Source of the DNA: Dehalococcoidia bacterium
GTDB taxonomy: Bacteria > Chloroflexota > Dehalococcoidia > SHYB01
NCBI GenBank assembly: GCA_965220155.1
Contig: OZ244810.1
Location: forward strand, 3,445,298 to 3,509,297
Direction of reading: 5' to 3'
Length of the DNA stretch: 64,000 bases
Numbering within the stretch: position 1 is the first letter of the stretch; the number at the start of each line of letters is the position of its first letter. Positions 3,087-59,121 of the stretch are shown piece by piece. Under the pieces are notes generated by a model. The model was not told the origin of the DNA. It made no database searches and saw nothing but the letters and a program-made list of their open reading frames with translations. The position numbers were made by a program, and so were the translations under genes.

Positions 3087-4130
3087 TCAGTCCAATACGA
3101 CACAGGCCCGGCCGGCCAGCTCCATCCGCTCGATGCTCCGCAGGGCCTCGCCGGCCTCCTCAAGTCGGCACAGCCTGGTGACTACGGGCCGCACCTGCCC
3201 TCGGGCGACCACTTCCACCGCCTCCGCAAGCTCCTGCCTGGTGCAATACCGTGAGCCGGTGAGGACGATCTCGGTGCCTACGAGATGGCCCGGACTGATC
3301 TCAAGCACGGCCTTCGTGTCGTACGATCCGACGAAGATGAGCCGTCCACCTTTCCCCAAACTCTTCAGGCTGGCCTCGAGGGTCTGCGGTAAGCCGACCA
3401 TCTCCACGACGGCATCCACGCCCCGGCCCCGCGTGAGGTCTCTCGCGGCCTCATCGATGCGGGCATCGCGAGCGTCTATGACGTGGTCGGCACCCATCTT
3501 TGTCGCCAGGGCCAGCTTCTCGGCGCTGATATCCACCGCAATGACCCTGGCCCCGAGCAGCTTCGCCATCTGCACCATGTGAATTCCGACCCCTCCACCC
3601 GCTCCGGTAATCAGCACCGTCTCGGGGGCCTGGACGCGGGCGCGCTCGCGCAGCACGTGCAGCGGGGTGCAGACCGCATCAGCCGTCACCGCGGCGTCGA
3701 CGTAGTCCAGCTCAGGCGGAATGCGGCACAGGTTCCGCGCGGGCAACACGACATAATCGGCCAGGCCTCCATCGGTCTGGACGCCGACGTACCCCGCGTG
3801 GCGGTCACACAGGTCTTCGCGGCCCACGTTGCACCATCGGCAGTCGCCGCAGGTGAGATAAAAGTACACGTTGACCCGGTCGCCTCGATGGAAGCCGGCG
3901 ACTCCCTCGCCCGTCCCCACGACGTCGCCCGCGATTTCGTGGCCGATGATACGAGGGAGCTTCGCGGGAAGGTCGCGCTGGCCCATGCGGCCTTTTAGGT
4001 TCCAGACAAGGGTCAGGCCAAGACCGCAAGCGCGTACTTTGACCAGAGCTTCTCCAGGGCCGGGCCGCGGGTCGTGGACCTCTTGCAGAACGAGGGGACC
4101 GTTGGCCTCGCTCAAGAACAGGGCCTTCAT
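3087..4130 (-). CDS. Zn-dependent alcohol dehydrogenase (MDR superfamily)
   Basis: GHEIAGDVV catalytic Zn motif, CGDCRWC structural Zn motif, GAGGGVG Rossmann; GGAGGGA RBS. Confidence 0.85.
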   Translation of the reverse strand: MKALFLSEANGPLVLQEVHDPRPGPGEALVKVRACGLGLTLVWNLKGRMGQRDLPAKLPRIIGHEIAGDVVGTGEGVAGFHRGDRVNVYFYLTCGDCRWCNVGREDLCDRHAGYVGVQTDGGLADYVVLPARNLCRIPPELDYVDAAVTADAVCTPLHVLRERARVQAPETVLITGAGGGVGIHMVQMAKLLGARVIAVDISAEKLALATKMGADHVIDARDARIDEAARDLTRGRGVDAVVEMVGLPQTLEASLKSLGKGGRLIFVGSYDTKAVLEISPGHLVGTEIVLTGSRYCTRQELAEAVEVVARGQVRPVVTRLCRLEEAGEALRSIERMELAGRACVVLD

Positions 4131-4349: not shown

Positions 4350-5483
4350 ATGAGCGAACCCCTGACGTCCGAGGTTGTCGAAGTTGATAGCGTATCCGCG
4401 GCGATGGACCTCGCGTGGGAGGAGGGGTGGACGGACGGTCTGCCTATCGTCCCGCCGACGGCAGACCGGGTCGCCCGCTTTCTGGAGGCCGGGGGCAGGG
4501 CGCCAGGCGACATTATCGGCGCGTACAAGGTCCGGAACCGAGAGATCAACGCGGAAAAGGTCGCCATCAACGCGGTCATGGCGGGCTGCAAGCCGGAGTT
4601 CATGCCCATCGTGAACGCGGCGATCGAGGCCGTCACTGACGAAGAGTTCCACATGAACCACATTGCCAGCACGTCCAGCCCTTGGCCGGCGTTTGTGGTC
4701 AACGGGCCCATCGCGGAGGAGGTCGGCCTCAACGCTGGGCTCTACGTGCTTGGCCCCGGCAGACGCGCCAACGCGACCATCGGACGGGCGGTCAGCCTCA
4801 CCCTGGCGAACTGCATGGACGCGAAGGTTGGGGGTGTCCAGCAAGGGGCAATGGGAAGCCCGTTTCGCCTAGGCGGGATGGTGATCGCCGAGAAAGAAGA
4901 TGATGTCTGGGAGCCGTTGTCGGTCATGCGGGGCTTCAAAAGGGGTGAGAGCGTCGTGACGGCTTTCAGCACCATGGAGGGCCCGCAGGACGTCCGCATT
5001 TACGGAATGCCCCATGTCGACACTGCCGAAGGGCTCACCTCGGTCCTCGCCGAGTATATGTCGGAGGGCTTCTTCTCCCCCGGTCCTCACCTTGTTCTTT
5101 TCTCTCCCTCCTGGCACCGGCTCTATCTGGAGGATGGCTGGTCCAAGCAGGACGTCATCCAGTACCTCGAAGACCATACGAGGAGCAGCGTTGCCCGGTT
5201 GCGAAGAAAGGGACGCCTGGGGCTCTACAAGGCCCACGAGGACAACCTGCATGAAGAGGAGTCCTCCGATATCGATCGGCTCATGGAGCCCGCCGAAAAC
5301 GGCGTGCCAATCATCGAGCCCCACGAGGAGGAGGAGTTCATGTACCACGCAAGGTCGGAACACCGCAGAACAGAGTATTCCGTGGCCGTGGCAGGTGGAG
5401 AGGTCGGGGCCTTCGCCATGATCTTCAAGCCGTACCCGACGGGACCGAACACCGTGAGCAAGGCCGTTCGCAAAGCGGGTTAG
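4350..5483 (+). CDS. Conserved uncharacterized protein, partner of UGSC selenoprotein (paralog 1 of 3)
   Basis: Start at ATG 4350 (AAGAGGA RBS), in frame inside longer GTG-start ORF. Shares motifs EGWTDGLP..PPT, AVMAGC(K/R)PEYMP, NH(I/L)ASTSSPWP, TIGRA(I/V)SLTLANCMDA with ORFs 45171 and 46350. Confidence 0.75.
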   Translation: MSEPLTSEVVEVDSVSAAMDLAWEEGWTDGLPIVPPTADRVARFLEAGGRAPGDIIGAYKVRNREINAEKVAINAVMAGCKPEFMPIVNAAIEAVTDEEFHMNHIASTSSPWPAFVVNGPIAEEVGLNAGLYVLGPGRRANATIGRAVSLTLANCMDAKVGGVQQGAMGSPFRLGGMVIAEKEDDVWEPLSVMRGFKRGESVVTAFSTMEGPQDVRIYGMPHVDTAEGLTSVLAEYMSEGFFSPGPHLVLFSPSWHRLYLEDGWSKQDVIQYLEDHTRSSVARLRRKGRLGLYKAHEDNLHEEESSDIDRLMEPAENGVPIIEPHEEEEFMYHARSEHRRTEYSVAVAGGEVGAFAMIFKPYPTGPNTVSKAVRKAG

Positions 5484-5513
5484 CCGAGCATAGTCAGAGA
5501 AGGGGTGAACGCG

Positions 5514-6080
5514 ATGGCCGATACAGGACGGCTGACACTGCTGGACCCTACGCTCCCCTACCCGAGCACCAAGGGTAAGCTAGCACCGCGCCTCGATACC
5601 CTGAACGGAAAGGTCGTGGGGTTCCTCGGGAACTCGTTCCCGGGCGCGGACAGAATGCTGGACAGAGTCCAGGAGATCGTCTCCTCAAAGTACGAACTGG
5701 AGGGGATGGTGGTCCGGCACAAGAGCTACCTGGGCGAACCGGCAACCAAAGAGATGTTCGATGAGATGGTCTCCTCCTGCGATGCCGTCTTCACTGCGAT
5801 AGGCGCTTGAGGCTCATGCTGCTCGGCCCTTGGGGTCGACGCGTTCGCTTTCGAGGAGAAGGGCATCCCGGTAGCAGCCCTGGCCATCGATACCCTGGTC
5901 GACAACGTCGGCAAGATGATCGGCCGGCTCCATGGATTTCCGGAATATCCGTACGTGATCATCCCCGCGCCGTTCATCGAGGGGGTGATGATCCCTGAAG
6001 ACATGTGGGAGCAGAAGATCCAGGACGCGGTGACGAAATCTGAGGAGCTTCTGACCGGTACATCGATCTCCGCCGGCTAG
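5514..6080 (+). CDS. UGSC-motif selenoprotein; in-frame TGA at 5808-5810 read as selenocysteine
   Basis: ORF 5505/5514..5810 ends ...FTAIGA-TGA and the same frame continues GSCCSALGVD... to TAG 6078-6080. Homologous over the whole length, including across the TGA, to the 47536 gene; hairpin 13 nt downstream of TGA. Confidence 0.75.
5823..5839 (+). other. Putative SECIS-like stem-loop downstream of the UGA of the UGSC gene
   Basis: ucggccc/gggucga stem (one G-U), 3-nt loop, starting 13 nt after UGA. Positionally and sequence-conserved with the hairpin at 47826. Confidence 0.55.
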
Positions 6081-6236
6081 GGCGTGTTCACACTAGCTGT
6101 GAGGCAAAGGCTTGCCAAAGTCGTGGCGGGGCTAAGGTGTCTGGCGGGCAGCGTCTTAGATTCCTCGGCTGCGCCTCGGAATGACACGGGGGGAGCGCTT
6201 TTCGTGTAGCGCGAGCATCGTGTAAACAGGCCCTAG
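6077..6236. mobile_element. MITE-like repeat, copy A (TIR gggcgtgttcacac / gtgtaaacaggccc, TA flanks)
   Basis: About 90% identical to copies at 13495 and 58943. Imperfect 14-bp terminal inverted repeats flanked by TA on both sides (within CTAG). Confidence 0.6.
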
Positions 6237-13494: not shown

Positions 13495-13650
13495 CTAGGG
13501 CGTGTTCACACTAGCTGTGAGGCAAAGGCTTGCCAAAGGCGTGGCGTGGCTAAGGTGCCTGGCGGGCAGCGTCTTAGATTCCTCGGCTGCGCCTCGGAAT
13601 GACATGGGGGAGCGCTTTTCGTGTAGCGGGAGCATAGTGTGTTCTGCGCA
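13495..13650. mobile_element. MITE-like repeat, copy B (3' end diverged/truncated)
   Basis: First about 125 bp near-identical to copies A and C; 5' TA flank present; 3' TIR missing. Confidence 0.55.
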
Positions 13651-13756: not shown

Positions 13757-14644
13757 ATGAAACAGATCGTGTATAGCCATGTCGATGACGCACCCTGGAT
13801 GCACCTGTCCCCACTGGGGGCCGGGGAGCTGTTCAGCAAGGTGGTGTTGGAGCCGCGTCCACGCGTTGCCCAGCTCTGGTATGAGCCCGGATACGTGTTC
13901 CCCGCTCACCGGCATCCCATGGACGAGGTGCTCTATGTTCTGAACGGGGAGATGTCCGTAAGCGGGCATCTCCTCAAAAGGGGCTCATTAGTCTTCATAC
14001 CGAAAGAGACCGTCTATGGTCCAGAGTACACGGGACCATCTGGAGCGCTGTTTCTGAGGGTAGAGCTTTGGGATACCGAGGAAGGTCCACCAGGCGGCCG
14101 GTCCAGCAAGGCCGCATACGAGCCGTGGACCGGTCAGATGGGAAGCGACGGTATGCCGCGGTCTGGAGTCCCCAGGAGCCCCGTCCCAGAAGGGGAAATG
14201 CAGCCAGAGCCGGCCGCGGGGGCCCGCAGCGTCCATGCGGACGACGCAAGGTGGGTCCAGGTCCAGCTCCCGGAAGAGGGGGCTGATCTCTTCATGAGGC
14301 CGTTGCTCACGGGGGCCCCCAGCGTGTCGCAGTTCTGGTACCCGCAGGACTCAGGAGACCATCCACACTCCCATGAGATCGACGAGCTCCGATTCATTTT
14401 GAACGGCGAGATGGACCTGGCCGGCCGGCGTGTCACACCGCGAACAGCCATTTTCGTCCCCAAGAACACGCCGTTCCGCATGACCAACTTCAGCCCTGGG
14501 GGTGTCAAGCTCCTCCGGCTGGAGCTGTGGGATACGCACGCGGGGCGCCCCGAGCGGCCTGGACCTCCGGTCAAGAGGGAGAGCAGGACGTGGGAAGGAC
14601 CCCTCACGGCGGACGGCGTCCCCGATCTGGACGGAAACCGCTAG
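13757..14644 (+). CDS. Bicupin domain protein
   Basis: Two cupin motifs HRHPMDEVLYVLNGEM and HSHEIDELRFILNGEM; GAGGTGAAGG RBS. Confidence 0.7.
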   Translation: MKQIVYSHVDDAPWMHLSPLGAGELFSKVVLEPRPRVAQLWYEPGYVFPAHRHPMDEVLYVLNGEMSVSGHLLKRGSLVFIPKETVYGPEYTGPSGALFLRVELWDTEEGPPGGRSSKAAYEPWTGQMGSDGMPRSGVPRSPVPEGEMQPEPAAGARSVHADDARWVQVQLPEEGADLFMRPLLTGAPSVSQFWYPQDSGDHPHSHEIDELRFILNGEMDLAGRRVTPRTAIFVPKNTPFRMTNFSPGGVKLLRLELWDTHAGRPERPGPPVKRESRTWEGPLTADGVPDLDGNR

Positions 14645-17002: not shown

Positions 17003-17926
17003 ATGGCTGACGCTCGCGACGTTGTGATCATCGGCGGCGGAGCCGCCGGGTTGGCGGCGGGACTGTACGCCGCCCGCTGGCGGCTGAATACCGTCCTGGT
17101 CGAAAGGATGGTCCCCGGCGGCCAGATCATCAACGCGGACATCATTGAGAACTACCCCGGACTGCACGAGGGGATCACCGGCGTGGACCTTTCGACCGCC
17201 CTCGAACAGCATGCCAGCGGCCAGGGGATGGAGAGCGCTTTCGGCGAGGTTACCTCCATAGACGTTTCGGGCAGCCCTATTGTGGTCAAGACCGACTTCG
17301 AGGAGCACCAGACCCGCTCCGTGATCATCGCCGTGGGGAGCGACCACAAGCACCTCGGGGTGCCGGGAGAGGCGGAGCGAGAGGGGCGGGGTGTTTCCTT
17401 CTGCGCCACTTGCGATGGGCCCTTCTACATCGATAAGGACATCGTGGTCGTCGGCGGCGGCGACGGGGCCCTGGACGAGGGGCTGTACCTGACCAAGATG
17501 GCAAGTAAGGTCACTGTCGTGCACCACGGGGACCAGCTTCAGGCCCAGACCGTCTACCAGGAGAGGGCCCAAGAAAACCCCAAGATGGAGTTTGTCTGGG
17601 ACTCGGTCGTCGATTCCATCGGGGGCGCCGACGGAGTCGAGAGCGTTTCGATACGAAACCTCAAGACAGGCGACAGAAGCGATATCGCGGTCTCCGGAAT
17701 CTTCCCCTACATAGGCCGGATGCCCAACACGAAACCCTTCGAGGGGACCGTTCCGATGGACGAGACGGGCCATATCATGGTCGATCTCAGAATGGCCACG
17801 GAGGTCCCGGGGGTGTTCGCGGCGGGTGAGTGCCGGTGGCAGTCCGCAGGCCAGCTGGCGAACCACGTGGGGGACGGGGTAACGGCCGCGTTCTCGGCGT
17901 ACCAGTACGTGCAGTCGATCCGCTAG
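17003..17926 (+). CDS. trxB: Thioredoxin-disulfide reductase-like flavoprotein
   Basis: GGGAAG FAD motif, redox-active CATCDG, second GGGDGA NADPH motif. Confidence 0.85.
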   Translation: MADARDVVIIGGGAAGLAAGLYAARWRLNTVLVERMVPGGQIINADIIENYPGLHEGITGVDLSTALEQHASGQGMESAFGEVTSIDVSGSPIVVKTDFEEHQTRSVIIAVGSDHKHLGVPGEAEREGRGVSFCATCDGPFYIDKDIVVVGGGDGALDEGLYLTKMASKVTVVHHGDQLQAQTVYQERAQENPKMEFVWDSVVDSIGGADGVESVSIRNLKTGDRSDIAVSGIFPYIGRMPNTKPFEGTVPMDETGHIMVDLRMATEVPGVFAAGECRWQSAGQLANHVGDGVTAAFSAYQYVQSIR

Positions 17927-24598: not shown

Positions 24599-24734
24599 TC
24601 GGAGCCATCGGGTTTGCAGCCGCGGGACATTGGGGGTCTTTACGATCGGGTTGTGAAGAGGGGTTGTGAAAGGGTATACAATGTTTGACAGGGCAGCGGC
24701 CTGCCATGGGCAGCGCCTACCGGAAGGAGACTTC

Positions 24735-26510
24735 ATGAGGACCCGCTATTTTGTCTTGATCGCGGTTGTAGGCGTGTTGGCCATGATTGTGAGCGCGTGC
24801 GGCGGCGGGGCTGATCCAACGGCCGTACCCACGGCCGTGCCAACGGCGACCCCGAGACCGACGGCAGTCCCGCCGACTGCCACGGCGATGATGATGGAAC
24901 AGCCCGACGCGACGGCAACCCCCCAACCCACGGCTACGCGGCCGCCAGTACCCACGGCGACTCCGACGGTGGTCCCGACGGCAATGCCGGCTGGGCCCCC
25001 AGTGAAGCGGGGCGGCACCGTCCGCTTTAACATGACGTTCGATCCCGCCACCCTGGAAGTCACCAAGGTCGAGACCTACACGGTCTTCTTCCAGCTGGAC
25101 GAGATATGGTCCAACCTGGTCCAGTACAAGTCTGACTTCTACACCCAGGTGGAGTTCATCGGCGACCTGGCAGACCGATGGGAAGTCAACGACGCCGGGG
25201 ACAAGTACACCTTCTTCATGAATCCCAATGCCCGCTGGCAGAACCTACCACCTCTGAACGGGAGGAAGATCACTTCCGCCGACGTCAAGTACGGCTACGA
25301 GCTGTTCAAGGACGAGGAATACAAGAGCCAGATGAGAAGCAGGCTCAGGGCGATCGACAGTATCGACACCCCGGACGACAGTACGCTCGTGCTGAACCTG
25401 ACAGAAGCGGCCAACAACGTGCTGTTCGATCTCGCCTGGCCCACGCTCAAGATCCACGCAAGGGAGGTGGTTGATCAGGGCCTGATCGGGACGGAAGAGG
25501 GGCTCATCGGAAGCGGGGCCTTCATCTTCCAAGAGTGGCAAAAGGGCAGCGTCATCAAAATGGCGCGCAGCACGAACTATTGGCGGGACGGCTCAGATGG
25601 TAGCGCGCTCCCGTATCTCGATTCCATTGAGTCGATCATCGTGGCTGATCCCATAACCATCTCGGCCGCCCTGGGAACAAACAAGTTGGACTTCGCGAAT
25701 ATCACGGGAGTCAGGAAGTCACAGGCCGAGCCGCTGTTCGAAAACACATCGGTAGAGGTCATTCCCGGGCACAGCGGGAGTGTCCGAATCCTGTGGATGA
25801 AGCATGACTACGAGCCCTTCTCCCATAAGCTGGTGCGCCAGGCGATCTTGAAGGCCGTCGACCCCGCCGAGATCAAGAAGGCCGCACTCGAAGCGGGAGA
25901 TATGCCGCTGGAGAGCTTCGTCTACTCGACGGCGGGAGACAAGCAGCTATCCCAAGAGCGGCTCGCAGAGATCCAGAAACAAGACTTCCCGGCTGCCAGA
26001 GCGCTTCTTGCGGAGGCGGGCTTCGCCGACGGCTTTGACTTGGAAATCATCGCCCAAGGGAATACGTCGCCGTCGCCCGAGATTCTCGCCCTAGCGCAAC
26101 AAAATCTCCAGGAGATAGGGCTCAGGGTCGACATCCTGCCCCTGAGCACTGGCGACTTCGGCGCCCGCAGATCAAATCTGAACTTCCAAATGTACTCGGG
26201 CTCGCTGAATCTTCAGGCTGACCCGGTATCCCAGCTAGGGAGTCAGTTCCGCACGGGCGCAGGAAGAAACTATGGAGGTTTCTCGAGCGCCGAGGCAGAT
26301 CGCCTGATGGACATGGCCAAGGCGGAGTTCGACCAGGCGAAACTCAAGGACCTCCTGCACCAGGCCCAGGAGGTCCTGTGGGACGAAGTGCCGGGCATCC
26401 CCCTTTCCCCTGGGCCCTCCTACCAGGTCCAGGCGGTGTACTTGAAGGGCTTCAAGAACAACTTCGCCTGGGGCAACCAGGGGCTGAAATTCGCCTGGCT
26501 GGACAAATAG
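24735..26510 (+). CDS. ABC transporter substrate-binding lipoprotein, family 5 (tandem paralog 1)
   Basis: Start ATG 24735 with GGAAGGAGAC RBS; signal peptide plus lipobox VSAC; about 80% identical to 26691 gene. Confidence 0.85.
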   Translation: MRTRYFVLIAVVGVLAMIVSACGGGADPTAVPTAVPTATPRPTAVPPTATAMMMEQPDATATPQPTATRPPVPTATPTVVPTAMPAGPPVKRGGTVRFNMTFDPATLEVTKVETYTVFFQLDEIWSNLVQYKSDFYTQVEFIGDLADRWEVNDAGDKYTFFMNPNARWQNLPPLNGRKITSADVKYGYELFKDEEYKSQMRSRLRAIDSIDTPDDSTLVLNLTEAANNVLFDLAWPTLKIHAREVVDQGLIGTEEGLIGSGAFIFQEWQKGSVIKMARSTNYWRDGSDGSALPYLDSIESIIVADPITISAALGTNKLDFANITGVRKSQAEPLFENTSVEVIPGHSGSVRILWMKHDYEPFSHKLVRQAILKAVDPAEIKKAALEAGDMPLESFVYSTAGDKQLSQERLAEIQKQDFPAARALLAEAGFADGFDLEIIAQGNTSPSPEILALAQQNLQEIGLRVDILPLSTGDFGARRSNLNFQMYSGSLNLQADPVSQLGSQFRTGAGRNYGGFSSAEADRLMDMAKAEFDQAKLKDLLHQAQEVLWDEVPGIPLSPGPSYQVQAVYLKGFKNNFAWGNQGLKFAWLDK

Positions 26511-26563: not shown

Positions 26564-26690
26564 TCGCGTTCGCACCTGGGCCGCGACCCCTGGCGGGGAC
26601 GGCGAAAAGGTCCGGGAGTTGACAGAAGCGAACACCGGCACTAGATTATCGTCGACTCGGCACCGAAAGTGCCTATCGGAAGGAGACGCC

Positions 26691-28463
26691 ATGAAGATGC
26701 GATATTTTGCGTCCGCCGCGCTCTTGGGGGTGTTGGCCCTGATTGTGAGCGCGTGCGGAGGGGGGGCTGATCCAACAGCCGTACCCACGGCCGTGCCAAC
26801 GGCGACCCCGAGACCGACGGCAGTCCCGACTGCCACGGCGATGATGGAAAAGCCCGACGCGACGGCAACCCCCGCACCCGCGGCGACGCGGCCGCCGGTG
26901 CCTACGGCGACTCCGACCGTGGTCCCGACGGCAACCCCGGCTGGACCCACGGTGAAGCGCGGCGGCACCATCTCCTTCTCCATGCCAACCGACCCCGCCA
27001 CCCTGGAAGTCACCAAGGTCGAGACCTACACCGTCTACTTCAACATGGACGAGATATGGTCCAACCTGGTCCAGTACAAGTCTGACTTCTACACCCAGGT
27101 GGAGTTCATCGGCGACTTGGCCGACCGCTGGGAAGTCAACGAAGCCGGGGACAAGTACACCTTCTTCCTCAATCCCAATGCCCGCTGGCAGAACCTACCA
27201 CCTCTGAACGGCAGGAAGCTGACCTCCGCAGACGTCAAATGGAGCTTCGAGCTCTACTTGGATACGGACTACGCGAGCCAGATGCGCAGCCGGGTTGCCG
27301 CGATCGACACCATCGACACCCCCGATGACACCACGGTGGTGCTGAACCTGACGGAACCCGCCAATAACGTGCTGTTCGATCTCGCCTGGCCGACACCAAA
27401 GATCCAGGCCCGGGAGCTGATAGATCAAGGCCTGATCGGGTCGGAAGAAGGGCTCATCGGCAGCGGACCCTTCATCTTCCAGGAATGGCAAAAGGGCAGC
27501 GTCGTGAAGATGACGCGGAGCACCAATTACTGGAAGGACGGCTCAGACGGCAAGGGACTTCCTTACGTCGATGCCTTGAATGTATTGGTCATTGCCGACC
27601 CTCAGACGGTATCGGCCGCCCTGCGGACGGCGAAGTTGGACTTCGCGAATATCGTCGGTGTCTCTACACGGGCGCAGGCCGATCCTCTCAGCGAGATCGA
27701 TGGGCTGTCGGTTATCCCCGGGCACCCAGGGAGCATCCGGGTCCTGTGGTTCAGGCATGACTATAAGCCTCTCGACAACAAACTGGTGCGCCAGGCCCTG
27801 CTAAAGGCCCTCGACCCCGTGGCCATCAAGAGGAACGCCCTTGCCTCGCCGGACATGCCGCTGGAGAGCTTCGTCTACTCGACGGCGGGAGACAGGTCGC
27901 TGCCCCAGGAGCGCCTCCTGGAGATCCAGGGCGTAGACGTCCCGGCTGCCAGGGCCCTTCTGGCAGAGGCGGGCTTTTCCGATGGCTTCAAGATCGAGGT
28001 GCTCGTCCAGGGGCCCTCATCCCCGGGTCCCGAGATCGCGGCGCTGATCCAGCAGCAGTGGCAAGAGGTGGGGATCGCCGTGAGCATCGCGGCTCCGACC
28101 CAGTCCGTTTTCATTCCCCGCCGACGAAATGGGGACTTCCACGTCGCCTCCACCTTCCTGAACCTTCAGGCTGATCCTGTGGCCCAGCTAGGGACTCAAA
28201 TGCGCACGGGTGCGGGCAGGAACTACGGGGGGTACTCCAATCCCGAGGCCGATGCTCTCATGGACAAGGCCAAGGGGGAGTTCGACCAGGCGAAACTCAA
28301 GGAGATCCTGTACCAGGCGCAGGAGGTCCTTTGGGAGGATGTGCCGGCCATTCCCATGTCCCAGGGGCAGTCCTTCCAGATCCAGTGGGACTACCTGAAA
28401 GGCTTCAAGAACAACTTCGCTTGGGGCAACCAGGGGCTGAAATTCGCCTGGCTCGACAAATAG
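26691..28463 (+). CDS. ABC transporter substrate-binding lipoprotein, family 5 (tandem paralog 2)
   Basis: Start ATG 26691 with GGAAGGAGAC RBS; lipobox; family-5 SBP. Confidence 0.85.
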   Translation: MKMRYFASAALLGVLALIVSACGGGADPTAVPTAVPTATPRPTAVPTATAMMEKPDATATPAPAATRPPVPTATPTVVPTATPAGPTVKRGGTISFSMPTDPATLEVTKVETYTVYFNMDEIWSNLVQYKSDFYTQVEFIGDLADRWEVNEAGDKYTFFLNPNARWQNLPPLNGRKLTSADVKWSFELYLDTDYASQMRSRVAAIDTIDTPDDTTVVLNLTEPANNVLFDLAWPTPKIQARELIDQGLIGSEEGLIGSGPFIFQEWQKGSVVKMTRSTNYWKDGSDGKGLPYVDALNVLVIADPQTVSAALRTAKLDFANIVGVSTRAQADPLSEIDGLSVIPGHPGSIRVLWFRHDYKPLDNKLVRQALLKALDPVAIKRNALASPDMPLESFVYSTAGDRSLPQERLLEIQGVDVPAARALLAEAGFSDGFKIEVLVQGPSSPGPEIAALIQQQWQEVGIAVSIAAPTQSVFIPRRRNGDFHVASTFLNLQADPVAQLGTQMRTGAGRNYGGYSNPEADALMDKAKGEFDQAKLKEILYQAQEVLWEDVPAIPMSQGQSFQIQWDYLKGFKNNFAWGNQGLKFAWLDK

Positions 28464-53391: not shown

Positions 53392-53599
53392 CGGACTCAC
53401 GAGGCTGGGGCGATGGGCGCTAGCCTGTGTCAACACTAAAGCTTGGCGCCGAAAACTCCGGACCTGTCATTGCTATGAAAATGGGCACCGTCGCGCCGCT
53501 GTTTCGTAGGCGCGGGTTTGAAACCCGCCTCCCGGCCCGTCGTTCCCCGCCTCCGGCCTTGTCCTGGACCGCCGCCGATTTTCATCCCCTTACGTGGCC

Positions 53600-53790
53600 T
53601 TCACAAGGCCATAGTGATTCCGAACGCAGTGAGGAATCTAGGGGGTCTCGCTCGGAATCATGGTGCAACTCGACTGACGGTCCTCTCCTTTGGGGCGTTG
53701 CGTTTCTAGTGGTCCAAGTTTGGGTGCAAGGGTCTTAGATTTCTCACTACGCTGCGCTACGTTCGAAATGACATGTTCGGGGGCTGCTAG
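53600..53790. repeat. Degenerate MITE-related element containing an inverted duplication of the repeat core (attccga..gaggaatctag / cttagatttctc..cgaaatgacat)
   Basis: Partial similarity to core of copies A-C in both orientations. Confidence 0.35.
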
Positions 53791-56383: not shown

Positions 56384-56414
56384 CGGCCCGTCTTCCGGGG
56401 CCACCATCAAGCTA

Positions 56415-57528
56415 GTACTCACTATCAATAGACAGCGTTAGGTGATAGACTCCCTCCATGGGAGTTGCAACACCTATCGATTTGACTGACGACGAACGGG
56501 ACACCTTGACGACCTTGGTGCGCAGTGCCACCGCTGAGCAGCGTCTGGTGCAACGAGCCCGCATAGCGCTGGAAGCAGCAGCGGGTAAGCCGACGAAGGA
56601 GGTCGCCGCCTTGTTGCACGTGCGCCCCGCCACGGTGAGCAAGTGGCGCACCCGGTTTGCCCAACACCGTGTGGCGGGATTGGCCGACGCGCCTCGGACA
56701 GGGAAGCCCCGCGTGTATGACGAGACGACGGAGCGGCGGATAGTGGCGCAGTTGGACCAGCCGCCGCCGGATGGGTACACGACCTGGACGGGCGGGCTGG
56801 TGGCAAAGGCGTTGGGAGACGTTCCGGCGCTTCAAGTGTGGCGGGTCTTGCAGAAGCACGGGATTCCCTTGCAGCGACGGCGCAGCTGGTGCGTGAGCAC
56901 CGACCCCCAGTTCGAGCAGAAGGCTGCTGACATCGTGGGGTTGTACCTGGACCCGCCGGAGAATGCCGTGGTGGTCAGCGTGGACGAGAAGCCCGCCATC
57001 CAGGCTCTGGAGCGCGCCCAGGGGTGGCTGCGGCTCCCCAACGGCAAGGCGGTTCGCGGGCATACCCATGAGTACAAGCGCCACGGGACCACGACCCTCT
57101 TTGCTGCCTTGGAAGTGCATACCGGGACCGTCGCCGTGGGCCACTACCGCCGTCGCCGCCGTCGGGAGTTCCTGGACTTCATGAACCGGGTGATCGCCCA
57201 ACATCCCGAAACGGAGCTGCATGTGATCCTCGACAACCTGAACACGCATAAGCCCAAGCATGACCGGTGGCTTGCCCGCCACCCGTCGGTCTCTTTCCAT
57301 TACACACCGACCCATGCTTCCTGGCTGAACCAAGTGGAGGTGTGGTTCAGCATCCTGACCCGAGCCGTGCTCCGGGGCCTGAGCGCCACGTCTCCCCACC
57401 AGGTACGCCAAGCCATTGACCGCTTTACTGATTCGCGTAATGAACACCCCGTGCCCTTTGAGTGGACGAAGAGTGTGGCGCACCCCGGTGGGCTCAAACA
57501 ACGTTACGCTGATTTAGGATACTAGGTA
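56415..57528 (+). mobile_element. IS630-family insertion sequence (1114 bp) with about 28-bp imperfect TIRs and TA target duplication
   Basis: Left end TA|gtactcactatcaatagac.., right end ..gatactaggtac|TA (revcomp ctagtacctagtatc). Confidence 0.8.
56458..57525 (+). CDS. IS630-family transposase (HTH plus DDE, single ORF)
   Basis: N-terminal HTH (ATVSKWRTRF), DDE region with LDNLNTHK motif; stop codon within right TIR. Confidence 0.85.
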   Translation: MGVATPIDLTDDERDTLTTLVRSATAEQRLVQRARIALEAAAGKPTKEVAALLHVRPATVSKWRTRFAQHRVAGLADAPRTGKPRVYDETTERRIVAQLDQPPPDGYTTWTGGLVAKALGDVPALQVWRVLQKHGIPLQRRRSWCVSTDPQFEQKAADIVGLYLDPPENAVVVSVDEKPAIQALERAQGWLRLPNGKAVRGHTHEYKRHGTTTLFAALEVHTGTVAVGHYRRRRRREFLDFMNRVIAQHPETELHVILDNLNTHKPKHDRWLARHPSVSFHYTPTHASWLNQVEVWFSILTRAVLRGLSATSPHQVRQAIDRFTDSRNEHPVPFEWTKSVAHPGGLKQRYADLGY

Positions 57529-58039
57529 CTAGACATAATCGAGACCCTTCGTGTTGGGGTTCAGTTTAGCGTTGTAGCCATAGGACTGACCGATGCTGCT
57601 CAGCTAGCCCCCACCGCTCACGACAGTACCTCAGCGGCACCACGCGCGAGGGGGTCGGTTTGCGGGCCACCAGCTGAAGCGCGGCTAGTCGTCTGGGTGG
57701 GCTAGTTTGACACCAATGGCATTGACAACCCCCAACAAGCCCCAATAGCCGTTCTGCGGCCCGCGATCCTTGCGTACCCCCATTGGCGTTCTCCTAGACG
57801 GTTACTCATGGCTCCAACATTCCACGCAGAGGCCCCAAGGGGGGTCTGGGCAGAAGTGGGTTCGCCGCTGACGCTCAGCTTTGAGACACAGGAATCTCAA
57901 GCGAAGAACACTCTAGCCAGTGGTTGCACCAACCGCCAGCAGCGAAGTGCAGGTTGCGCTGATGCTAACGGGCTAAGCTCTAACCTTCCCGCTCACCAGC
58001 AGTAGCAGCGCATCCCGCTGGCCGGTCAGCATCATCCCT

Positions 58040-58942: not shown

Positions 58943-59121
58943 CTAGGGCGTGTTCGCACTAGCCGTGAGGCAAAGGCTTGCCAAAGGCGTGGCGGGGCTG
59001 AGGTGGCTGGCGGGCAGCGCCTTAGATTCCTCGGCTGCGCCTCGGAATGACATGGGGGAGCGCTTTAAGACACGGGGGAGCGCTTTTCGTGTAGCGCGAG
59101 CGTAGTGTAAACAGGCCCTAG
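58943..59121. mobile_element. MITE-like repeat, copy C (with internal 19-bp duplication)
   Basis: About 90% identical to copy A; both TIRs and TA flanks intact. Confidence 0.6.

Follow-up and report, generated by a model that had tools for sequence, protein, structure and literature searches.

A dispersed repeat with the ends of an IS5-family insertion sequence and a REP hairpin in its core, in a Dehalococcoidia bacterium

What is the short repeat dispersed between the genes of a Dehalococcoidia bacterium, and what would have moved it? The repeat lies in a stretch of 64,000 nucleotides of contig OZ244810.1 (positions 3,445,298 to 3,509,297 of the forward strand), referred to here, at its whole length, as the window. 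An earlier note, made from the sequence alone, had compared it with a miniature inverted-repeat transposable element (MITE), bounded by terminal inverted repeats (TIRs) and flanked by TA, and had proposed either a derivation from Tc1/IS630 transposons or a structured small RNA. The evidence presented below makes it very probable that the repeat is a non-autonomous MITE of the IS5 family carrying a repetitive extragenic palindrome (REP) hairpin.

Copies of the repeat and the insertion sequence that shares their ends

Three copies of the element, approximately 155–175 bp in length, were delimited in the window by repeat finding (two repeat families) and MAFFT alignment:

6080..6233, + strand: MITE-like copy 1, complete, 154 bp; left TIR GGGCGTGTTCACAC at 6080-6093, right TIR GTGTAAACAGGCCC at 6220-6233
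13498..13640 (right edge approximate), + strand: MITE-like copy 2, right end truncated; left TIR at 13498-13511, TA at 13496-13497
58946..59118, + strand: MITE-like copy 3, complete, 173 bp; left TIR GGGCGTGTTCGCAC at 58946-58959, right TIR at 59105-59118

Pairs of copies were 94–96% identical at aligned positions. Their common boundaries were sharp, and the flanking sequences were unrelated right up to the TA. The TA dinucleotides were located at 6078-6079 and 6234-6235 for copy 1, and at 58944-58945 and 59119-59120 for copy 3, in both cases in the context C-TA...TA-G. In copy 2, just GTGT was left of the right TIR, the last 10 nt or so and the right TA being gone. Copies 1 and 3 started with GGGCGTGTTC(A/G)CAC and ended with GTGTAAACAGGCCC; their right ends were identical and the left TIR of copy 3 differed from that of copy 1 by one A>G change. 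The two 14-nt TIRs of these copies matched each other at 12 of 14 positions (15 of 17 with CTA included). Allowing up to two mismatches, the 16-mer TAGGGCGTGTTCACAC was found five times in the window, at the three left ends and the two right ends, as compared to 0.02 expected from shuffles, and a 29-nt core occurred three times (0 expected). An internal tandem duplication of 20 nt was present in copy 3, at approximately 59055-59074.

The element contained chance open reading frames (ORFs) of at most 45 amino acids, and longer spurious ORFs merely crossed it. The three copies were all intergenic, in convergent, divergent and co-directional gene contexts; the left TA and the first G of copy 1 formed the TAG stop codon of the upstream gene. 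The description of a dispersed, non-coding, intergenic repeat with TIRs and TA flanks is borne out by these copies. The earlier count of three to four copies with both features held for three, two of them complete, copy 2 lacking its right end. The proposed fourth, a degenerate copy at 53600-53790, was dropped: it showed no TIR match, and its similarity to the repeat was limited to the core hairpin of about 30 nt.

The left 20 nt of the repeat, CTAGGGCGTGTTCACACTAG, had exact matches in at least 120 contigs in a scan of the JGI metagenome contigs. Many of these matches were located at contig ends, which is usual for repeated sequence. Inside the matches lay either the start of a transposase gene (MEITEEQYARIKDSLPVQRGNV...; MEITEEQY...LPVQRGNV) or the reverse-complemented end of one (...RNEIERLFRRLKGFRRIFSRFEKLD...; ...RIFSRFEKLD...). 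Among the metagenome matches listed, about 45 contigs carried complete elements of 809–828 bp, bounded on either side by perfect inverted repeats of the CTAGGGCGTGTTCACACTAG sequence. These insertion sequences (ISs) possessed two overlapping, frameshifted ORFs, orfA and orfB. The conceptual orfA-orfB fusion scored 242 bits on the NCBIfam model transpos_IS5_3 (NF033580, cutoff 110) and also matched Pfam DUF4096 and DDE_Tnp_1. A homologue with identical TIRs and a T8 slippery run, on the Burkholderia thailandensis plasmid NZ_CP010016.1, is annotated as 'IS5 family transposase'. We take these small two-ORF IS5_3 elements to be the 'IS427-like' group of ISfinder.

The flanks of 43 non-redundant complete elements with the same type of TIRs were compared. 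TA was present at both ends in 39, as CTA...TAG in 32, CTA...TAA in four and TTA...TAG in three. Judged from this pattern, duplication of a TA at a YTAR target appears to fit better than a 4-bp CTAG duplication, to which the seven CTA...TAA or TTA...TAG elements among the 43 conform poorly. Seven further metagenomic elements, of 153–183 bp, shared these TIRs; their interiors were mutually unrelated and matched the base composition of the host.

The repeat resembled the IS5_3 elements and their MITE derivatives in its identical terminal repeats (TA followed by GGGCGTGTTCACAC), in its TA flanks within YTAR/CTAG, and in the 153–183-bp size class. It differed from the ISs in having no transposase gene, in an interior unrelated beyond approximately 20 nt, and in a right TIR two positions off the commonest IS end. 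Some IS copies (L140, L220 and L128 among the loci fetched) have one of these changes, G8>C, in their orfA-proximal end as well, so that the repeat looks like the combination of one right-type (IRR) and one left-type (IRL) end. Among the searches of the JGI metagenomes and of at least 110 genome loci, this MITE sequence family was met in this species only. At one end of two IS5_3 elements (L126, about 860-900; L141, about 3830-3880), two to three TAGGGCGTGTTCACAC units stood in tandem, forming a reiterated terminal repeat.

The window itself encodes a transposase of the IS630 family, which the earlier note had mentioned beside the proposed Tc1/IS630 derivation:

56415..57529, + strand: IS630-family insertion sequence; TA at 56413-56414 and 57530-57531, in CTAG context; not the partner element of the repeat

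According to this alternative, the transposase of the window's IS630, or a relative, would have moved the repeat into the TA of a CTAG. TA flanks in CTAG are indeed also the signature of IS630 elements. The one in the window is flanked in this way and its transposase is intact (243 bits on transpos_IS630), which explains the inference drawn in the earlier note. Such flanks do not discriminate IS630 from IS5, however, because IS5_3 elements show identical ones. The TIRs of the window's IS630, GTACTCACTATC and GTACCTAGTATC, had nothing in common with GGGCGTGTTCACAC, and those examined among the 45 or so complete elements with the TIR of the repeat encoded an IS5-family transposase, an IS630-type gene being present in none. 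The ends of the repeat being those of IS5_3 elements, the IS630 origin is not upheld and we regard it as highly improbable. MITEs of the IS630 family, for example the pneumococcal RUP, are similar to the repeat in size (about 100–200 bp), in their TIRs, in their TA duplication (putative in the repeat) and in their intergenic location; the difference lies in the sequence of the TIRs and in the family of the cognate transposase.

The IS5 assignment is carried by the identity of the TIRs with those of ISs encoding an IS5_3 transposase, by the TA/YTAR rule at their flanks, and by independent MITEs of the same size with the same TIRs. We propose the following mechanism. The ends of the repeat would be the TIRs of the IS5-family IS of about 0.82 kb with two frameshifted ORFs. 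An IS5_3-type DDE transposase supplied in trans would bind the terminal 14–16 nt, excise the element of about 155 bp and insert it at YTAR, mostly CTAG, doubling the central TA. Under this model, the allele before insertion would have been CCGGCTAGCGGTG at the site of copy 1 and GACCTCTAGGGCGG at the site of copy 3.

Several results weigh against this interpretation. No empty pre-insertion site was found in the related long-read contigs (nine at copy 1, eight at copy 2, one strain at copy 3), so that the mobilisation of this particular element, and the TA as its target duplication, are inferred rather than observed. A tblastn search of the 64-kb window revealed no IS5_3-like ORF, and no IS with these TIRs was present there; the partner IS was also missing from the related loci fetched. 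The element-specific 22-mer GTGAGGCAAAGGCTTGCCAAAG had 0 matches in the JGI metagenomes. With BLAST, no full-length match to the repeat was obtained in at least 110 genome loci, where only a REP module of 30–60 nt was matched. Finally, the copies seen were three only, within the 64-kb window.

State of the copies in related strains

Related contigs were found by exact-protein look-ups of six flanking genes and through one 99%-identical homologue. The short-read contigs from the same samples all stopped inside a copy of the repeat, which supports the view that it is repeated in the source. With the 54-amino-acid ORF adjacent to copy 1 as a query, nine long-read contigs were retrieved from other samples. 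Comparison of the ORFs of the window with titled loci gave no taxonomic placement; the nearest named homologues of one flanking enzyme were approximately 60% identical and carried the labels Chloroflexota or Binatia.

Copy 1 was at the same site in all nine of these contigs. In three of them it was split at position 75–82 or so of the repeat, just 5' of the REP, by approximately 2 kb (L250 10237-12247, L254 7272-9455 and L256 7776-9946, corresponding to about 6155 in the window). The insert contained the remnant of an IS256-type transposase and an NmrA-like gene. In L254, positions 75-82 of the repeat overlapped by 8 nt, which may represent an 8-bp target duplication.

Copy 2 was present, with the identical truncation of its right end, in the eight contigs reaching the site. 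Four of them showed a deletion of 27 nt at the left border, between GGGCGT direct repeats, and three an insertion of 110–142 nt inside the REP. The locus of copy 3 was found in one other strain by way of the homologue, which is that of the adjoining gene. There, the left 40 nt or so had been lost to a MazE/PemK/Eco57I island, the right TIR had a 3-nt deletion, and the REP carried an insertion of the kind seen in the REP of copy 2.

Since the copies occupied the same sites throughout and no empty site was encountered, they predate the divergence of the strains examined. Selection does not protect them, and the family gives the impression of age and decay in this species, with fixed sites, the loss of one copy end, a doubly altered right TIR, internal deletions and insertions, and a window without the partner IS; it is probably now inactive in this lineage.

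These observations also bear on the other proposal, a structured small RNA, considered here as a gene family or a cis-regulatory RNA in which the TIRs would be the closing helix. The element folds well on both strands (z about -3.9 relative to shuffles), but a good fold is expected of any element bounded by TIRs, and the sequence of the 'closing helix' is precisely that in which an IS family ends. A hairpin within the element has stems which covary across genomes; the same hairpin is nevertheless found alone in many phyla, the remainder of the element being absent. No Rfam family matched the element: neither the window nor 12 related loci gave a match at the gathering score, and two sub-regions searched with E values of up to 1 or 10 gave matches at chance level only. 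The mixture of gene contexts around the copies is equally at odds with an RNA gene, as is the tolerance by the strains of end loss and of insertions of 0.1–2 kb within the element. Copies that are fixed, and truncated or interrupted in strains, point to a decaying transposon family rather than an RNA gene, and the small-RNA proposal is scarcely credible.

The REP hairpin in the core

The conserved core of the repeat had been noted to contain a palindrome of its own. This palindrome is real and corresponds to a REP tagged with CGTC/TGTC, which is far more widely spread than the MITE itself:

6157..6186, - strand: CGTC/TGTC-tagged REP unit in copy 1; tag TGTC at 6183-6186, arm ATTCCGAGG, loop CGCAG, arm CCGAGGAAT, tail CTA
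13575..13604, - strand: REP unit of the same type in copy 2 (core match)
59023..59052, - strand: REP unit of the same type in copy 3 (core match)

In a scan of GTDB genomes, the 22-mer of the core, CCTCGGCTGCGCCTCGGAATGA, was found without any change at 110 loci at least, in at least seven phyla. It occurred in Acidobacteriota (among them the isolates Granulicella mallensis and Bryocella elongata), in Chloroflexota (Dehalococcoidia, Thermomicrobiales and Litorilinea), and in Planctomycetota, Armatimonadota, Alpha- and Gammaproteobacteria, 'Deltaproteobacteria', Clostridia and Binatia. Lineages shared about 30 nt only, the flanks being lineage-specific. Single genomes of Dehalococcoidia and of Acidobacteriaceae each contributed at least ten loci.

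The architecture of the REP comprises an outer stem of 5 bp, a tandem G.A mismatch, an inner stem of 2–3 bp and a GNA triloop. The mismatch occupies positions 6-7 of the 9-nt arms (ATTCCGAGG and CCGAGGAAT) and leaves 5 plus 2–3 Watson-Crick pairs; an alternative reading of the 5-nt loop CGCAG is a GCA triloop with a C-G closing pair. The tag was TGTC in the three copies of the window, and elsewhere TGTC in 111 of 129 instances (86%) and CGTC in 11 (8.5%). The tail began with CT or CC, and its next base varied (AATCT 53, AACCT 28, AACCC 22, AATCC 19); it was similar to CCA without being identical to it. An inverted partner was present within 200 nt in 30 of the 129 instances.

Variants collected as a by-catch of the fetched loci kept this architecture, with outer stems ATTCC, ATCCC, ATTTC, ATCCT and ATTCT, inner stems GGC/GCC, CC/GG, GC/GC and AC/GT, and loops GCA, GAA, GTA and GGA. 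The GA..GA feature was observed in 144 units of 33 distinct types, as compared to 0–1 in shuffled controls; 76 of the 144 were the exact variant that had fetched the loci, and the complementarity of the outer stem was imposed by the search, that of the inner stem and the GA pairs being free. The nearest-neighbour folding energy of the 30-nt unit was not significantly better than that of shuffles (z -1.0 to -1.7), and the structure is thus based on covariation, not on energy.

The survey of Di Nocera, De Gregorio and Rocco (2013, PMC3733652) described CGTC-tagged REPs with a tag CGTC, often TGTC, a stem of 8–9 bp starting with AT, a loop of 4–5 nt and a 3-nt tail of consensus CCA. Single units and inverted dimers are both found, for the most part between genes and without a dedicated transposase, and the class includes dRS3 of Neisseria and RPE-4/-6 of Rickettsia (PMC3733652). 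In its layout, the core hairpin fits this superfamily: the TGTC/CGTC tag is unpaired, the 9-nt arms start from AT, the loop is of 5 nt and the short tail is C-rich, and the units are dispersed, intergenic, single or in inverted dimers, with no associated transposase. It differs by the tandem G.A mismatch in the arms, by the GNA triloop on an inner stem of 2–3 bp, and by a tail CTN/CCN instead of CCA. Chloroflexota, Acidobacteriota, Planctomycetota, Armatimonadota and Bacillota are new phyla relative to the CGTC list of that survey, from which repeats with more than one stem mismatch had been dropped (PMC3733652). The peptides of intragenic Rickettsia units given in its supplement (SFLRKQES, LDSRFRGND and WIPWSNHGMT) would back-translate to the same ATTCC...GGAAT frame. 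Genomes with the tandem-GA type also contained, next to it, canonical CGTC-1-like units (GTC-ATTCCCRC-GAAA-GYGGGAAT). Searching the full text of the literature for the core, written as DNA or as RNA, brought up irrelevant primer or siRNA matches only.

Clustering of the ORFs around the 110 or more REP loci revealed no transposase among the recurrent neighbour families checked. The recurrent neighbours were of housekeeping type (ABC-F, peptidase S9, sigma-54 activator, SDR and others). A Dehalococcoidia-specific ORF cluster, considered as a possible partner of the REP, proved to be a paralogous secreted protein and not a transposase.

Several local arrangements of these units were observed. In an Acidobacteriota metagenome-assembled genome (L028 1526-2800, CAVZQL010000018.1), an 84-nt unit was repeated in tandem at least 12 times, each time with the exact REP 22-mer; the array is satellite-like and not a CRISPR because its 'spacers' are identical. 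In Granulicella (L006, L007, L010, L037, L054 and L087), the REP was followed by a hexanucleotide run (AAGAGC/AACAGC)n and then by a second REP type, GCAGATTCC-CTGCG-GGAATGACAAC, forming a lineage-specific composite. Short tandem duplications started exactly at the REP tag, with GACAYGGGGGAGCGCTTT present twice in copy 3 (59050-59075) and in strain L249 (about 17834-17875), and may be the trace of a copying of REP-adjacent sequence. Reiterated half-sites of the form GGAATGAYATGGG were present in Dehalococcoidia (L002 1550-1590).

The REP is common to the three copies and was therefore present in the master copy. In BLAST comparisons, approximately 60 nt around it resembled REP modules of Dehalococcoidia, which suggests that the interior of the MITE may be derived from host-type REP-bearing DNA. 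The hairpin would be passenger DNA in the MITE, and may form incidentally in transcripts or in single-stranded DNA. Among the seven metagenomic elements of 153–183 bp, a GC-rich MITE of 183 bp with IS5-type TIRs (L136 4248-4430, metagenome contig MKWU01004047.1) held two inverted GTAG-tagged REPs, GTAGGTCGGATTAGCGCAGCGTAATCCGAC and GTAGGTCGGCTTGGCCGAAGGCGTAAGCCGAC, and is a second, independent instance of REPs as MITE cargo.

The converse relationship has to be considered. The repeat could be a composite resembling REPs or bacterial interspersed mosaic elements (BIMEs), spread by the CGTC-type REP process, either an HUH/RAYT-like enzyme or recombination, its IS-like ends being accidental. For example, a solo pair of IS ends could have received a REP and then been copied by segmental duplication or gene conversion instead of transposition. 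REPs within larger palindromes are on record, with CGTC-1 dimers of H. neapolitanus in 41-bp palindromes and GTAG-15 dimers of A. variabilis in long ones (section 7 of PMC3733652). The likeness of the REP and its 60-nt surroundings to Dehalococcoidia modules, and the lack of an empty site that would prove transposition, also speak for such a composite. On the other hand, exact common boundaries at the TIRs with different flanks up to the TA are expected of transposition and not of segmental duplication, both complete copies lie in the favoured target of the IS family, and Y1/HUH transposases were absent from the recurrent neighbour-ORF families mentioned above. We consider this possibility improbable. 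The repeat does resemble the nested REPs of these two species, with a REP in the middle of a larger dispersed element bounded by inverted repeats. It differs in that its outer repeats can be assigned to the ends of one particular IS family, and the composite has for this reason a known mobilisation route.

The 53.6-kb locus, a small element inserted in REPs, and implications

The sequence around 53.6 kb, once regarded as a degenerate copy of the repeat, contains two variant REP units:

53465..53640, + strand: variant REP unit (TGTC ATT / ATTCCGAAC GCA GTGAGGAAT CTA), split between tag and stem; not a copy of the MITE
53736..53773, - strand: second variant REP unit (TGTC ATTTCGAAC ...GCGCAGC... 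GTGAGAAAT CTA), in inverted orientation with respect to the first

The segment 53465-53773 is a dimer of variant REPs with the tags outward ('HH dimer'). The left unit is made up of two parts, 53465-53471 and 53617-53640, separated by an insertion of 145 nt (53472-53616) with ATT on both sides, at 53469-53471 and 53617-53619. It reads TGTC-ATT, then GCTATGAAAATGGGCAC...GGCCATAGTG, then ATT-CCGAAC... The inserted mini-element is non-coding, has no match in Rfam, and reaches about 250 nt in L258. A related element, approximately 75% identical, was present in the REP of copy 2 in three strains and in the REP of copy 3 in one strain, and was absent from the REPs of copies 2 and 3 in the window. 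Its position and orientation relative to the REP were the same in the three REPs. The occurrences were as follows:

53472-53616 of the window: mini-element in the left unit of the REP dimer
L249, about 17690-17833: mini-element
L253, about 17688-17810: mini-element
L255, about 14516-14627: mini-element
L258, about 5229-5445: mini-element

These are three independent insertions, specific for site and orientation and polymorphic between strains; besides being carried in the MITE, the REP hairpin is where another small mobile element lands. Signs of recent mobility are seen in the mini-element and not in the MITE, and no other part gives such evidence. Known elements that target REPs include IS1397 and ISKpn1, found in the loops of BIMEs, and members of IS110/IS1111, found in REPs. 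The mini-element is like them in that both its position within the REP hairpin and its orientation are fixed; it differs by its length of only about 145 nt, by being non-coding, and by its location at the junction of tag and stem, with ATT on both sides.

The REP with tandem G.A mismatch and GNA triloop, 22–30 nt of which are identical in at least seven phyla amid unrelated flanks, might be the part that matters biologically, as an independently spreading module. It would be horizontally propagated by some enzyme, ride in MITEs of unrelated IS families, and serve as a specific landing pad for a mini-element that is still active. We offer this as a speculative and rather unlikely extension. If it were true, the long-read population data of the species would constitute a natural system for the movement of 'orphan' CGTC-type REPs.

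Two other features of the window were observed. The gene upstream of copy 1 is a single frame of 191 codons (5505-6080, + strand) with one in-frame TGA at 5808-5810. This TGA, in the context ...AIGA-U-GSCC..., falls at the U of the U-G-S-C motif of the Pfam 'UGSC family', for which reason the gene probably encodes a selenoprotein. Gene callers divide this frame into ORFs of 98 and 54 amino acids in every strain. At 24666-26510 and 26619-28463, two adjacent ORFs of 614 amino acids correspond to a tandem gene duplication of about 1.95 kb, with 72–89% nucleotide identity. Each copy is followed by an identical perfect palindrome of 29 nt, AAGAGGGGCGGTCGTAGACCGCCCCTCTT.

For annotation, the three loci of the repeat would be described as remnants of an IS5-family MITE, rather than as IS630 MITEs or small-RNA genes, and the 53.6-kb locus as a dimer of REPs into which a mini-element has inserted. 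MITEs that share identical IS5-type ends but not their interiors have originated repeatedly, and REP hairpins can be their cargo, which provides a second dispersal route for REPs. The CGTC/TGTC class of REPs appears to extend to Chloroflexota, Acidobacteriota, Planctomycetota and others, with a tandem G.A variant that earlier surveys would filter out. This cross-phylum variant and the REP-targeting mini-element are the more interesting leads.

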